Source of the DNA: Escherichia coli
GTDB taxonomy: Bacteria > Pseudomonadota > Gammaproteobacteria > Enterobacterales > Enterobacteriaceae
Strand: one strand, 5' to 3'
Assembly (NCBI RefSeq): GCF_003790525.1
Contig: NZ_CP033635.1
DNA length: 64,000 bases
Made by a program: the position numbers and the translations under genes
Notes under the pieces: generated by a model
The model's database searches: none
The model's input: only the letters and a program-made list of their open reading frames with translations
What the model was told of the DNA's origin: nothing
In this document: positions 25,362 through 38,346 of the stretch, piece by piece
Layout of the letters: every line of letters begins with the position of its first letter
How positions within the stretch are numbered: position 1 is the stretch's first letter

Positions 25362-27347
25362 ATGAATAACTCTCGGTTATTCCGTTTGAGCAGGATTGTT
25401 ATTGCGTTAACTGCCGCCAGCGGCATGATGGTAAATACCGCTAACGCAACAGATGAAGCGAAAGCCGCCACTCAATATACCCAACAGGTTAATCAGAATT
25501 ACGCCAAATCATTACCGTTTAGCGATCGTCAGGATTTTGACGATGCTCAGCGTGGATTTATCGCTCCGCTGCTGGATGAAGGTATTCTGCGCGATGCTAA
25601 TGGCAAACCATATTATCGCGGAGAAGATTATAAATTTGATATCAATGCGCCCGCGCCCGAAACCGTTAACCCAAGCCTGTGGCGTCAGTCGCAGATCAAC
25701 GGCATTTCTGGCCTGTTTAAAGTCACCGACCGCATGTATCAGGTGCGCAGCCAGGATATCTCGAACATCACCTTCATTGAAGGCGATACGGGCATCATCG
25801 TCATTGACCCGCTGGTGACGCCAAATGCAGCAAAAGCCAGCCTTGATCTCTATTTCAAACACCGCCCACAAAAACCGATTGTGGCCGTTATCTACACCCA
25901 CAGCCACACTGACCACTATGGCGGCGTAAAAGGTATTGTCTCAGAAGCCGATGTAAAAGCAGGCAAAGTGCAGATCATCGCCCCGGCAGGCTTTATGGAC
26001 GAAGCCATCAGTGAAAACGTGCTGGCGGGTAATATCATGAGTCGCCGTGCATTTTACTCTTACGGCCTGCTACTCCCGCATAATGCACAGGGAGATATCG
26101 GCAACGGGCTGGGTGTTACGCTTACTACCGGCGGCCCGACAATTATCGCGCCGACGCGATCTATCACCAAGACAGGAGAGAAACTCAATATCGACGGGCT
26201 GGATTTCGAATTCCTGATGGCTCCAGGCAGCGAAGCGCCGTCTGAAATGCACCTCTATATTCCGGCGTTGAAAGCCCTGTGCACAGCGGAAAACAGCACC
26301 CATACCCTGCATAACTTCTACACCCTGCGTGGCGCGAAAACCCGTGATACCGCGAAGTGGACCGATTACCTGAATGAAACGCTGGATAAGTGGGGATCAC
26401 AAGCAGAAGTGCTGTTTATGCCACATACCTGGCCAGTATGGGGTAATCAACATATCAATGATTATATTGGAAAATATCGCGACACCATTAAGTATATTCA
26501 CGACCAGACCCTGCACCTGGCGAACCAGGGTTACACCATGAATGAAATCGGCAACATGATTCATCTGCCGGAAACGCTGGATAAAAACTGGGCCAGCCGT
26601 GGCTATTATGGCTCCGTCAGTCATAACGCTCGCGCGGTATATAACTTTTACCTCGGCTACTACGACGGTAACCCAGCAAACCTGAATCCGTATGGCCAGG
26701 TCGATATGGGTAAACGTTATGTCAAAGCGCTGGGAGGTTCCGCACATGCTATCAATCTGGCGCGTGAAGCCTATAACCAGGGCGACTACCGCTGGGCCTC
26801 TGAACTGCTGAAACAGGTGATTGCTGCCAATCCGGGAGACCAGGTGGCGAAAAACCTACAGGCCGATACCTTCGAACAATTGGGTTATCAGGCCGAATCA
26901 GCCACCTGGCGCGGCTTCTACCTGACGGGAGCGAAAGAACTGCGTGAGGGCGCGAAGAAAATCGAACACGCCAGCACCGCCTCTCCTGACACCATCAAGG
27001 GTATGACCGTCGAGATGCTGCTTGATTACATGGCTGTTCGTCTGAACAGTGAGAAAGCCGCGGGCAAATCCATCAGCCTGAACTTCAATCTCTCTGACAA
27101 CGATAACCTGAACCTCTCACTCAACAATAGCGTATTGAACTACCGTAAAGTACTGCAACCGAAGGTAGACGCATCGTTTTACATGAGCCGCAGCGATCTG
27201 CACGACGTGCTGGTCGGACAAGCCAAAATGGCGGATCTGGTAAAGGCGAAGAAAGCCAAAATTATTGGCAATGGCGCAAAACTGGAAGAAATTATTGCCT
27301 GTCTGGATAATTTCGATTTGTGGGTGAATATCGTAACCCCAAATTAA
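25362..27347 (+). CDS. yjcS: Putative alkyl sulfatase YjcS (MBL fold), 661 aa
   Basis: ORF track 25350..27347 trimmed to [13 protein letters not shown] start; signal peptide; metallo-beta-lactamase motif [11 protein letters not shown]. Confidence 0.9.
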
Positions 27348-32592: not shown

Positions 32593-34740
32593 ATGAAAAA
32601 AGTCGTCACGGTTTGCCCCTATTGCGCATCAGGTTGCAAAATCAACCTGGTCGTCGATAACGGCAAAATCGTCCGGGCGGAGGCAGCGCAGGGGAAAACC
32701 AACCAGGGTACCCTGTGTCTGAAGGGTTATTATGGCTGGGACTTCATTAACGATACCCAGATCCTGACCCCGCGCCTGAAAACCCCCATGATCCGTCGCC
32801 AGCGTGGCGGCAAACTCGAACCTGTTTCCTGGGATGAGGCACTGAATTACGTTGCCGAGCGCCTGAGCGCCATCAAAGAGAAGTACGGTCCGGATGCCAT
32901 CCAGACGACCGGCTCCTCGCGTGGTACGGGTAACGAAACCAACTATGTAATGCAAAAATTTGCGCGCGCCGTTATTGGTACCAATAACGTTGACTGCTGC
33001 GCTCGTGTCTGACACGGCCCATCGGTTGCAGGTCTGCACCAATCGGTCGGTAATGGCGCAATGAGCAATGCTATTAACGAAATTGATAATACCGATTTAG
33101 TGTTCGTTTTCGGGTATAACCCGGCGGATTCCCACCCAATCGTGGCGAACCACGTAATTAACGCTAAACGTAACGGGGCGAAAATTATCGTCTGCGATCC
33201 GCGCAAAATTGAAACTGCGCGCATTGCTGACATGCACATTGCATTGAAAAACGGCTCGAACATCGCGCTGTTGAATGCGATGGGCCATGTCATTATTGAA
33301 GAAAATCTGTACGACAAAGCGTTCGTCGCTTCCCGTACAGAAGGCTTTGAAGAGTATCGTAAAATCGTTGAAGGCTACACGCCGGAGTCGGTTGAAGATA
33401 TCACCGGCGTCAGCGCCAGTGAGATTCGTCAGGCGGCACGGATGTATGCCCAGGCGAAAAGCGCCGCCATCCTGTGGGGCATGGGTGTAACCCAGTTCTA
33501 CCAGGGCGTGGAAACCGTGCGTTCTCTGACCAGCCTCGCGATGCTGACCGGTAACCTCGGTAAGCCACATGCGGGTGTAAACCCGGTTCGTGGTCAGAAC
33601 AACGTACAGGGTGCCTGCGATATGGGCGCGCTGCCGGATACGTATCCGGGATACCAGTACGTGAAAGATCCGGCTAACCGCGAGAAATTCGCCAAAGCCT
33701 GGGGCGTGGAAAGCCTGCCTGCTCATACCGGTTATCGCATCAGCGAGCTGCCGCACCGCGCAGCGCATGGTGAAGTGCGTGCCGCGTACATTATGGGCGA
33801 AGATCCGCTACAAACTGACGCGGAGCTGTCGGCAGTACGTAAAGCCTTTGAAGATCTGGAACTGGTCATCGTTCAGGACATCTTTATGACCAAAACCGCG
33901 TCGGCGGCGGATGTCATTTTACCGTCAACGTCATGGGGCGAGCATGAAGGCGTGTTTACTGCGGCTGACCGTGGCTTCCAGCGTTTCTTTAAAGCAGTTG
34001 AACCGAAATGGGATTTGAAAACGGACTGGCAAATCATCAGTGAAATCGCCACCCGTATGGGTTATCCGATGCACTACAACAACACCCAGGAGATCTGGGA
34101 TGAGTTGCGTCATCTGTGCCCGGATTTCTACGGTGCGACTTACGAGAAAATGGGCGAACTGGGCTTCATTCAGTGGCCTTGTCGCGATACTTCAGATGCC
34201 GATCAGGGGACTTCTTATCTGTTTAAAGAGAAGTTTGATACTCCGAACGGTCTGGCGCAGTTCTTCACCTGCGACTGGGTAGCGCCAATCGACAAACTCA
34301 CCGACGAGTATCCGATGGTACTGTCAACGGTGCGTGAAGTCGGTCACTACTCTTGCCGTTCGATGACCGGTAACTGTGCGGCACTGGCGGCGCTGGCTGA
34401 TGAACCTGGCTACGCACAAATCAATACCGAAGACGCCAAACGTCTGGGGATTGAAGATGAGGCATTGGTTTGGGTGCACTCGCGTAAAGGCAAAATTATC
34501 ACCCGTGCGCAGGTCAGCGATCGTCCGAACAAAGGGGCGATTTACATGACCTACCAGTGGTGGATTGGTGCCTGTAACGAGCTGGTTACCGAAAACTTAA
34601 GCCCGATTACGAAAACGCCGGAATACAAATACTGCGCCGTGCGCGTCGAGCCGATCGCCGATCAGCGCGCCGCCGAGCAGTATGTGATTGACGAGTACAA
34701 CAAGTTGAAAACTCGCCTGCGCGAAGCGGCACTGGCGTAA
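32593..34740 (+). CDS. fdhF: Formate dehydrogenase H (selenoprotein, molybdopterin enzyme), 715 aa with in-frame UGA at 33010-33012
   Basis: Track ORFs 32593..33012 and 33061..34740 are in the same frame, separated only by a TGA followed by a stem-loop (SECIS); N-terminal Fe-S motif CPYCASGC. Confidence 0.95.
33010..33055 (+). other. UGA selenocysteine codon plus bacterial SECIS stem-loop of fdhF
   Basis: In-frame TGA followed immediately by CACGGCCCATCGGTTGCAGGTCTGCACCAATCGGTCGG hairpin. Confidence 0.8.
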
Positions 34741-35523: not shown

Positions 35524-35680
35524 TGTAGGCCTGATAAGACGCGTTAATCGTCGCATCAGGCGTTGATGTCGGATGCGGCGTAAACGCCTTATCCGACCTA
35601 CAAAATCACGCTAAATCAGGCTATTGCGCTGTCTGACGTAGGCCTGATAAGACGCGGCAAGCGTCGCATCAGGCATCCAC
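35524..35680. repeat. BIME: at least three REP units between yjcO and gltP
   Basis: Alternating AGGCCTGATAAGACGCG...GCATCAGGC and CGGATGCGGCGTAAACGCCTTATCCGACC units. Confidence 0.65.
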
Positions 35681-35714
35681 ACATTGCCGGGTGGATATCC
35701 CCGGCAATCTTCAA

Positions 35715-37028
35715 TTATTGATCCGCAGTTTTATCAAATTTGCCCAGCACTTCGCGCTCATAAGCCAGCGCTTTCTTACGGTCAAATTTGTGTTCCCACT
35801 TGGCAATCACCAGCACCGCCAGCGCATTACCCACCACGTTCAGCGCAGTACGCGCCATATCGAGGATACGGTCAACACCGGCAATAAATGCCAGACCTTC
35901 CAGCGGAATACCTACGCTACCCAGCGTTGCCAGCAGCACCACAAACGACACGCCCGGCACGCCAGCAATCCCTTTCGAGGTCACCATCAGCGTCAGCACC
36001 AGAATGATTTCCTGCCAGATGGACAGGTCAATGCCATACAACTGCGCGATGAAAATAGCGGCAATACTTTGATACAGCGTCGAACCATCAAGGTTAAAAG
36101 AGTAACCGGTCGGCACCACGAAACTGGTGATCGACGCCGGTGCACCGTAGGCTTCCATCTTCTCAATAATTCGCGGCAGCACGCTTTCAGAACTGGCAGT
36201 GGAGTACGCCAGAATCAGCTCATCTTTCAGAATACGAATCAGGATCCAGACGCTTAACCCGCACAGGCGCGCCACAATTCCCAGCACTACCAGCGCGAAG
36301 AACAGAATGGCGAAATGCACCAGCAGCACCAGTTTCGCCAGTGGCCACAGAGAAGAGAAACCAAAGTTAGCCACCGTCACCGCAATCAGCGCAAACACAC
36401 CCACCGGTGCATAACGCATCACCATGTGAGTCACTTTAAACATGGTTTCAGAGATGGAGCGGAACACGGTCACCAGCGGTTCACGATGCGTCGCGGGCAG
36501 GGATGAAAGCCCCAGACCAAACAGCACCGAGAAGAAGATGATCGGCAGCATTTCGCCTTTCGCCATCGACGCCACAATGTTCGTCGGCACCAGCGACAAA
36601 ATCGTGCCCATAATGCCGTGGGAACTGCTTTGTACCGCTTCCGTAGTGCTCTGATATTTCGAGATATCGACGGTCGCCAGCTGCGACATATCCACCCCGG
36701 CACCGGGCTGGAAGACGTTCGCCAGAGTAATCCCCAAAATGATGGCGACGGTGGTGATCACCTCGAAGTAAATAATGGTTTTCGCGCCAATACGCCCGAG
36801 CTGTTTGGCATCACCAACACCCGCGATACCCACCACCAGCGTGGAGATCACAATCGGCACAACAATCATTTTGATCAGATGGATGAAGATATCACCCGCC
36901 GGAGAGAGCAAATTGACGACCAGCCAGTCGCGACTGTCGCTATGGTAGTGCAGGTAGCTTCCCAGGAGAATGCCCAGCACCATAGCAAACAGAATCTGCC
37001 AGGCCAGGCTGAATTTTATATTTTTCAT
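35715..37028 (-). CDS. gltP: Proton:glutamate/aspartate symporter GltP, 437 aa
   Basis: ORF track; dicarboxylate/amino acid:cation symporter family. Confidence 0.95.
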   Translation of the reverse strand: MKNIKFSLAWQILFAMVLGILLGSYLHYHSDSRDWLVVNLLSPAGDIFIHLIKMIVVPIVISTLVVGIAGVGDAKQLGRIGAKTIIYFEVITTVAIILGITLANVFQPGAGVDMSQLATVDISKYQSTTEAVQSSSHGIMGTILSLVPTNIVASMAKGEMLPIIFFSVLFGLGLSSLPATHREPLVTVFRSISETMFKVTHMVMRYAPVGVFALIAVTVANFGFSSLWPLAKLVLLVHFAILFFALVVLGIVARLCGLSVWILIRILKDELILAYSTASSESVLPRIIEKMEAYGAPASITSFVVPTGYSFNLDGSTLYQSIAAIFIAQLYGIDLSIWQEIILVLTLMVTSKGIAGVPGVSFVVLLATLGSVGIPLEGLAFIAGVDRILDMARTALNVVGNALAVLVIAKWEHKFDRKKALAYEREVLGKFDKTADQ

Positions 37029-37369
37029 CAGAATAACTTCCTCAATGGAGCGCCGTTCCCCGTTCAGAAACGCGAGAACGTGACATACTGCCAGGGCATG
37101 AATTGTGTTGCGTTGGTTTGTAGATTTTTTTAACGCTTATGATCAGTATCATTTGCGCGGTATGTTGCGCAACCCTTTAACAACAGAGCTTTTCGCTGCA
37201 TTAATGCATAATAACGCGAGTTTATGGCAGGATTAATGAATAACCATTTGTTATAGAAAGATTTTTATTTGTTTAATTTGCAATAATACTGATTAGTGAT
37301 TATTTTGGGCATATGTTCATTCGATTATTTTTTATGCAGCTCAATAACATAATCTTCATCACCAGATGA

Positions 37370-37966
37370 TTAATCTGATCTCCGCTGCAACAGTTTCGCC
37401 AAATTAATCGACTCGACCAGCTGTGTCCGGTTGATCCGGGGTGAGTTGAGATCCATCACTTTTTGCCATAGTTCGATGGCTTGCGCGTAATTCGCCTGCA
37501 TAAACGCATCGGAAGCCAGCAGCATCAGAGCGGTGATTTCGTTAGAGTCCAGCGCGAGGGCTTTGTCGATCATTGCGCGAGTCTGGGCGGTCATATGCTG
37601 GCTGGCCTGGTAATAAAGCACCGTCGCCAGCGCCGCATACAGTTCAGCGTTCTCACCACGTAGTTGCAACGCCTGACGGTACGCCAGCAGCGAATTGCTG
37701 TAATCGTTTTGCCACAGATAATACTCGCCCAGTAACGCCCATTGTTCGCTGTTTTGTGGATTAGCGCGGATTTTATCCTGCAATGCCTGAAGCTGCGCTT
37801 CCGGGGTTTGCTGGCTGGCAAACTGATGTAGCGGATCGCGCTGACGTTGATACTCCGCACGTACCGCCTGCCATTTTGGGCTTAACAGATAACTGCCGAT
37901 ACAGAGAAATACCATCAAAATCGTGAGTGTTGTCAGCATTTTCACCGGTATTTGAGGCTGTTTCAT
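37370..37966 (-). CDS. nrfG: Nrf heme lyase TPR subunit NrfG, 198 aa
   Basis: ORF track 37370..38032 trimmed to [13 protein letters not shown] start; TPR repeats. Confidence 0.9.
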
Positions 37967-38346
37967 CGCTTCGCCCTCACTCGCCAGAGGATCAGTGCCA
38001 TCAGCAGTAACAACACCACTGGCAGAGCCCACAATACCAGCGTCTGACCCGTTAACGGTGGGTTATAGCGAACAAAATCTCCGTAGCGTTCGGTCATCCA
38101 GCCAATGATTTCGACTTCACTTTTCCCCTCTTCCACCATGCTGTAAACCTGATGGCGCATACTGACCGCCACCGGCGCATTGGATTCCAGTAAGTTCTGA
38201 TTCTGACACTGCGGACAACGTAACTGGCTGGCAATATTTAACGCCTGTTGCTGTTGTTGCGGATTGGCGAATTGCCAGGTGTCTACGACCTGAGCACGCG
38301 CAAAACAGGTAAATAACAGCAGTAGCGTGAGAAGTCCTTTATTCAT
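37963..38346 (-). CDS. nrfF: Nrf heme lyase subunit NrfF (CcmH-like), 127 aa
   Basis: ORF track; CcmH-like LRCPQCQNQ motif. Confidence 0.92.

Follow-up and report, generated by a model that had tools for sequence, protein, structure and literature searches.

Introduction

Does the long gap between nrfG and gltP in Escherichia coli conceal a gene of its own, or does it serve one of its two neighbours? In the window analysed here, a stretch of 64,000 nucleotides of E. coli DNA, the genes nrfE, nrfF, nrfG and then gltP follow one another on the minus strand, and the nrfG–gltP spacer covers positions 37029–37369 (341 bp). Its borders are as follows:

37370–37372, minus strand: nrfG stop codon TAA, upstream border of the spacer
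37026–37028, minus strand: gltP start codon ATG (first base 37028), downstream border of the spacer

A sequence-only reading of this DNA had taken the spacer for the promoter and leader of gltP, with the reservation that it might hold a small RNA or a short peptide. We conclude that the spacer, read on the minus strand, is very probably the ordinary transcriptional and translational control region of gltP, which encodes the glutamate/aspartate transporter.

The nrfG–gltP spacer is AT-rich and unannotated

The borders of gltP and nrfG in the RefSeq annotation of E. coli SMS-3-5 match those of the window, and the spacer of K-12 MG1655 is also 341 bp long. The window spacer is identical (100%) to that of SMS-3-5, as is the wider interval 36929–37469, which was found in 5420 of 5426 complete E. 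coli genomes. RefSeq places no feature inside the spacer in SMS-3-5, in K-12 MG1655 or in any of the matches listed. The G+C content is 36.7%, compared with 52.9% for the whole window, and falls to 26% in the lowest 150-bp stretch of the spacer; only 0.35% of the window's 150-bp stretches are as low or lower. Runs of at least five A or T residues occur at 37125, 37262 and 37328. The initial description of an AT-rich, featureless tract of about 340 bp with runs of T/A, lying between the nrfG stop and the gltP start, therefore agrees with the borders, the base composition and the empty annotation.

Between K-12 and the window, 8 of the 341 positions differ (98% identity), five of them in the distal half and three between the Shine-Dalgarno sequence and the ATG; the two sequences are the same throughout dyads 1 and 2, the proximal promoter, the GcvB site and the leader hairpin, all described below. 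Locus L003, labelled E. coli SCPM-O-B-8794, shares 92% identity with the window in the spacer and 93% in NrfG. Because it is far more divergent from the window than K-12 is (98%), it may represent a cryptic Escherichia lineage. Four of the roughly 5420 spacer copies in complete E. coli assemblies sit on records classed as plasmids.

Two further observations concern the neighbourhood. On the other side of gltP, the gltP–yjcO spacer (35524–35714) is 191 bp long with REP-like sequence, and is 641 bp in K-12 MG1655, about 450 bp more. In fdhF (32593–34740), an annotated gene of 2148 bp, the list of open reading frames starts the frame at 33061, presumably because an in-frame UGA selenocysteine codon splits it.

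Most of the spacer is conserved with gltP across genera

We compared 80 loci encoding close relatives of GltP, one per species. Only Escherichia and Citrobacter, with 13 of the 80 loci, encode NrfG upstream of gltP. Blastn nevertheless aligned spacer positions 99–334 (window positions ~37271–37036) in about 60 loci belonging to many genera, and because these positions align whatever gene lies upstream, we assign them to gltP rather than to nrfG. The segment adjoining nrfG, from 37369 to ~37272, gave no alignment in genera that lack nrfG upstream. Read along the minus strand, the conserved blocks are an ATAAC-N5-GTTAT dyad (37254–37240), AAAGGgTTGCgc followed at a distance by GCAaATGaTACTGAT, then GCGTTAAAAA and AACGCAACACAAtTCATaCCCtTTCAGTATGT; a variable stretch follows, and a conserved CATTGAGGAAGT stands immediately before the gltP ATG.

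Within E. coli, conservation is concentrated in a 65-nt core (37112–37176) that comprises the core promoter and the start of the leader. Of 5418 E. coli records, 5327 carry an identical core, but over the whole spacer only 227 of 5421 show at least 99% identity.

A weak extended −10 promoter precedes gltP

The core contains elements with the layout of a sigma-70 promoter with an extended −10, the hexamers lying 18 nt apart and a TG standing one base upstream of the −10:

37167–37172, minus strand: −35 hexamer TTGCGC, separated from the −10 by 18 nt; its TTGC is the same in all 44 aligned taxa
37143–37151, minus strand: extended −10 TG-a-TACTGA, with TG at 37151–37150 and the hexamer TACTGA at 37148–37143
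37029–37136, minus strand: predicted gltP 5′ UTR of about 108 nt, beginning at the conserved GCGTTAAAAA; its start is deduced from the −10

The −10 hexamer is weak, since the final T of the consensus is absent. The pattern TGnTAnT was found in 64 of 81 scanned loci (all but four of L003–L066, together with Yersinia and Erwinia), at distances from the gltP ATG that range from 104 to 145 nt. A consensus promoter scan requiring at least 9 of 12 matches called nothing in the spacer, as expected for so weak a hexamer, and so adds no independent support.

Published mutations bear directly on this element. During evolution of K-12 in LB, 9 of 10 lines acquired gltP(A-115T) or gltP(-118ΔC), which the authors named promoter mutations (Knöppel et al. 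2018, PMC5933015). The mutants grow on glutamate as a carbon source, and from this phenotype the authors inferred higher expression (PMC5933015). With positions numbered from the gltP ATG, −115 falls on the A at 37143 and −118 on the C at 37146, and the bases given by the authors agree with this numbering alone. A-115T converts TACTGA to TACTGT and -118ΔC converts it to TATGAT, both nearer to TATAAT in the same register. Because both changes shift TACTGA toward the consensus, we read them as repairs of a weak −10. The register TG-a-TACTGA is our own reading of these mutations together with the conservation. Transcription would start near 37136, at the conserved GCGTTAAAAA, as judged from the position of the −10.

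The A-115T allele occurs in 0 of 5426 complete E. coli genomes. Its absence, and a core that is near-identical species-wide while the spacer as a whole varies, lead us to regard the weak −10 as maintained. One base change in the hexamer is enough to improve growth on glutamate, yet the weak form stands in about 5,400 E. coli genomes. That nearly all genomes of the species keep it suggests selection for low expression of GltP.

In two Citrobacter species, the gltP −10 element and the conserved GCGTTAAAAA are separated by an ERIC/IRU-like repeat, inserted exactly between the two. The insert is ~125 bp long in L012 (2266–2392, core CGCTCACCCCAGTCACTTACTGGCGTAAGCTCCTGGGAATTC) and ~60 bp in L028 (~2330–2390), and would become part of the gltP leader in both. 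It gave a weak Rfam match to V_AS5, of 33 bits, below the gathering score.

A dyad in the upstream half keeps a fixed distance to the promoter

Upstream of the core promoter, the following features were recorded:

37173–37369, minus strand: distal AT-rich half, 29.9% G+C, read here as upstream regulatory DNA
37240–37254: dyad 1, ATAACAAATGGTTAT, ATAAC-N5-GTTAT (also ATAA-N7-TTAT or T-N11-A), centred at about −111 from the predicted start
37211–37225: dyad 2, ATAAACTCGCGTTAT, one mismatch, 29 bp downstream of dyad 1 and centred at about −82
37283–37312, minus strand: candidate distal promoter ATGCCC-18-TATTAT (ATGCCA in K-12), hexamers taken from a SELEX table

Dyad 1 was present with zero to two mismatches in all 64 loci that had a promoter anchor, and its central five nucleotides vary freely. 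In 63 of these 64 loci the start of the dyad and the promoter TG downstream of it are exactly 103 nt apart, though the length of the leader varies. The fixed spacing, the preserved half-sites and the free centre are characteristic of a dimeric protein that binds DNA in phase with the core promoter, and dyad 1 is probably the site of a dimeric regulator. Dyad 2 is conserved only in part across genera. Both dyads fall within a 26-nt imperfect direct repeat.

Which regulator might bind here? For YdcI, a LysR-type protein, a ChIP-exo peak upstream of gltP is among those reported by Gao et al. (2018, PMC6237786). Read as ATAA-N7-TTAT, dyad 1 fits the motif as described in that paper, namely AT-rich inverted repeats 7 nt apart (PMC6237786). 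Of five other YdcI-bound spacers, three contain the dyad with one mismatch or none, where shuffled sequences would give 0.13 copies. The real 64-kb window is itself dyad-rich, with the dyad about six times commoner than in shuffles, so this enrichment is weaker than the shuffle P suggests. The ydcI–ydcJ spacer holds no copy, and nhaA none with fewer than two mismatches. We rate dyad 1 as the likely site of YdcI; it would fit equally well the ATA-N9-TAT consensus of Nac. IHF was also considered at dyad 1, where TAACAAATGGTTA is one mismatch from WATCAANNNNTTR, and was judged less likely because both half-sites are symmetrically conserved. For the study of YdcI control, a dyad so constantly placed relative to the promoter offers a concrete target for mutation.

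The same dyad was seen elsewhere in the window. A perfect copy, ATAACTCTCGGTTAT, which shares its half-sites with dyad 1, is found at the opening codons of yjcS, an alkyl/aryl-sulfatase gene (25366–25380). Outside the gltP spacer, the 64-kb window holds six copies with at most one mismatch, where about one would be expected from shuffles of the whole window.

Other symmetrical sequences in the spacer were examined as operator palindromes and set aside. TGCATTAATGCA (37207–37196), GTTGCGCAAC (37173–37164) and the FNR/CRP-like TGATACTGATCA (37151–37140) are each specific to E. coli, their symmetry being lost in other genera.

The AT-rich half also appears to be a target of H-NS, the nrfG>gltP spacer being marked 'HNS' in genomic SELEX data (Shimada 2014, PMC3946193).

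The same dataset raises the question of whether the main start of gltP lies further upstream. Shimada 2014 (PMC3946193) lists ATGCCA-18-TATTAT in the nrfG–gltP spacer as a 'constitutive' RpoD promoter, that is, a site bound by the holoenzyme in genomic SELEX in vitro. If this were the principal promoter, transcription would start near 37276 and the leader would be ~248 nt long, with the dyads and TTGCGC...TACTGA acting as RNA or roadblock sites. Besides the holoenzyme binding site with these hexamers (PMC3946193), such a start would be consistent with cross-genus alignable conservation, which begins near 37271, and with an AT-rich, TATTAT-like hexamer that is loosely kept in other genera. The hexamers of the SELEX table are, however, sequence picks inside a binding peak rather than mapped starts, the −35 differs between K-12 (ATGCCA) and the window (ATGCCC), and the consensus scan missed this promoter, whose conservation outside Escherichia is only loose. 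The up-mutations, moreover, improve TACTGA in a single register, as is the signature of a core promoter, and dyad 1 keeps its distance to the TG while the distance from TG to ATG varies between 104 and 145 nt, which is the architecture of a promoter acting at the DNA level. A main start at the distal site is, on this evidence, quite improbable, and we retain the proximal promoter as the principal one, beside which the distal site may act as a second promoter.

The distal half and the end of the nrf operon

The distal half could alternatively be mainly the end of the nrf operon, either a Rho-dependent termination zone or a 3′ UTR, rather than regulatory DNA of gltP. A scan for an intrinsic terminator after nrfG found none, and folding there is weak; because none follows nrfG, nrf transcripts must stop by another route or read into gltP. 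Both this result and the failure of the segment from 37369 to ~37272 to align where nrfG is not upstream favour an assignment to nrf. Rho loading sites are typically C-rich and G-poor, and this segment, being AT-rich, is unlike them. From ~37271 downstream, moreover, genera with another neighbour than nrfG have kept the sequence, dyad 1 included. We therefore consider it rather unlikely that the distal half mainly serves nrf. A role at the end of the nrf operon and a regulatory role for gltP are compatible, and we keep the latter as the preferred reading. An IS insertion in the nrfG–gltP spacer of heat-evolved E. coli appears in the section on IS10 expansion of one report (PMC10044804).

The gltP leader combines a predicted GcvB site, a hairpin and a strong Shine-Dalgarno sequence

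Independent evidence that the gltP mRNA has a leader comes from small-RNA biology. In the account of Miyakoshi (2021, PMC9299463), gltP is a verified post-transcriptional target of GcvB, and repression of a gltP::sfGFP translational fusion needs the seed region R1. Such targeting implies that the mRNA must have a leader, in which we recognised the following features:

37093–37121 (−93 to −65), minus strand: CA-rich block ACAAACCAACGCAACACAATTCATGCCCT, predicted GcvB R1 pairing site, the best R1 duplex in the leader
37054–37080, minus strand: leader hairpin CGUUCUC-G-CGUU-UCUG-AACG-GGGAACG, −11.1 kcal/mol, separated by 10 nt from the Shine-Dalgarno sequence downstream
37037–37043, minus strand: Shine-Dalgarno sequence GAGGAAG, separated from the ATG by 8 nt; all 51 sequences compared share its AGGA

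For the duplex predictions, R1 alone was used as the query, full-length GcvB having given a meaningless long duplex with RNAduplex. The best duplex between K-12 GcvB R1 and the E. coli leader reached −23.0 kcal/mol, against about −18 for shuffled leaders. Over 51 taxa the margin is modest, with a mean of −20.8 kcal/mol against −17.5 for shuffled sequences. The sequence AACGCAACACAA is kept at the CA-rich block in most taxa, and the block is the best R1 site in most genera, with divergence in some, for example Kosakonia and Phytobacter. The exact GcvB site at 37121–37093 is accordingly given as a prediction. GcvB masks CA-rich translational-enhancer sites in other amino-acid transporter mRNAs, and the gltP block resembles these.

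Downstream of the CA-rich block, the hairpin of the E. coli leader has counterparts at the equivalent place in the leaders of other genera, where the stem sequences differ. Because MAFFT aligns the 3′ arms by sequence, two columns out of register between clades, we assigned a 9-bp helix by hand in a subset of 14 sequences. In this subset 88.9% of cells were paired, compared with 29–48% when the partner was slid, and six of the nine pairs had changes on both sides. A covariance-model alignment of 49 sequences, which was fitted to the model and so leans toward it, gave 89.7% paired against 25–52% slid, and 43 cells with double changes against 12.2 in shuffles. Of the E. coli sequence, the covariance model aligned no more than the Shine-Dalgarno part, and the E. 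coli hairpin itself therefore rests on single-sequence folding. RNAalifold on plain MAFFT alignments of the leaders returned no consensus structure, and folding of the whole leader was no better than that of shuffles (z = −0.21).

The hairpin is followed by GCGCTCCATTGAGG and has no U tract after it; for this reason we do not regard it as a terminator. We would guess at a role in stabilising the mRNA or in leaving the ribosome-binding site free of pairing. With the comparative support described, its effect on translation or stability could be tested.

No separate product is apparent in the spacer

The spacer is long enough, and contains enough short reading frames, to raise the possibility of a separate product, whether a small RNA, arising for instance from the 3′ end of nrfG or from the 5′ UTR of gltP, or a short open reading frame that is translated. 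The longest frame lying inside the spacer encodes 43 aa on the plus strand, followed by 36, 23 and 20 aa on the minus strand. The earlier statement that no frame exceeds 60 aa is accurate for frames inside the spacer. A 171-aa plus-strand frame (36618–37133), antisense to the gltP start, enters the spacer for 105 bp; it had no Pfam match above noise and was treated as spurious. The candidates on the gltP strand are

37300–37362, minus strand: 20-aa frame
37130–37201, minus strand: 23-aa frame
37042–37152, minus strand: 36-aa frame
in the leader, minus strand: 11-aa and 14-aa frames

Some features of these frames are suggestive. The 14- and 36-aa frames end in a TGA overlapping the Shine-Dalgarno sequence of gltP, and could thereby couple translation; the ATG within CAGTATGT is conserved in many genera; and a missing annotation is weak evidence of absence. 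The peptides themselves, however, are not conserved. The frame opened by the conserved CAGTATGT varies between 1 and 30 aa in length, and neither its peptide nor its reading frame is shared between genera. Across 60-odd loci, upstream frames in the leader range from 1 to 39 aa, again unrelated in sequence and frame, and some run into gltP. The 11-aa peptide MPWQYVTFSRF is confined to Escherichia, its ATG being ATA elsewhere. The 20-, 23- and 36-aa frames start upstream of the predicted transcription start, no Shine-Dalgarno sequence precedes any of the short frames, and a Pfam search with five short frames and the 171-aa frame matched none of them.

For a small RNA, a search of Rfam 15 at E values up to 10 gave no match in the spacer; over 36500–38000 the sole match was a chance miRNA (E 5.1) inside gltP. 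Neither strand carries a hairpin followed by a T run that could act as a terminator. The K-12 RefSeq record is empty here, yet it lists small proteins and small RNAs at other loci. With Rfam, terminator, Pfam and upstream-frame conservation all negative, the suggestion of a small RNA or short peptide was not borne out, and we regard a separate product as extremely improbable.

A model for gltP control

These results favour a reading in which the spacer serves gltP at two levels, as the sequence-only reading had proposed in taking it for promoter and leader; that proposal gains from the conserved promoter, the −10 up-mutations and the targeting of gltP by GcvB. In the model we propose, the AT-rich half would be bound by H-NS, with dyad 1 and the weaker dyad 2 most likely engaged by YdcI. 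Transcription would begin at the weak sigma-70 promoter TTGCGC-18-TG-a-TACTGA, near 37136, giving a leader of ~108 nt. On this leader, GcvB R1 would pair with the CA-rich block to repress translation; the conserved hairpin and a strong Shine-Dalgarno sequence would then follow.

In substance the control region of gltP is already known, through the published inputs of GcvB, YdcI and H-NS. What is added here is resolution: the register of the hexamers, the fixed spacing of the dyad and the covariation of the hairpin. A bolder interpretation would combine the dyad 103 nt from the TG, found from Escherichia to Yersinia and Erwinia, the weak −10 and the covarying hairpin beside the ribosome-binding site into a regulatory module of the glutamate/aspartate:H+ symporter that is undescribed at this resolution. 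We hold this to be doubtful. If it were true, a YdcI-type regulator might counter H-NS from far upstream, and the hairpin might gate translation or mRNA decay together with GcvB. For annotation, the spacer should be labelled as gltP regulatory DNA and leader and not as a candidate gene; beyond annotation its importance is small.

Comparison with known regulatory systems

The proposed organisation resembles several known ones. Like other AT-rich regions bound by H-NS upstream of promoters, that of gltP combines ~30% G+C over ~200 bp with a neighbouring weak promoter and an H-NS mark.

Activators of the LysR type typically bind in a −65/−35 arrangement. The gltP dyads, centred at about −111 and −82, lie further upstream than this. 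As in the YdcI regulon (PMC6237786) and LysR-type sites in general, dyad 1 has the T-N11-A form, and a weaker second site lies about three helical turns away.

At the RNA level, gltP shares with GcvB R1 targets such as gltI a CA-rich site upstream of the ribosome-binding site. It differs from them in that a conserved hairpin stands between the predicted site and the Shine-Dalgarno sequence.
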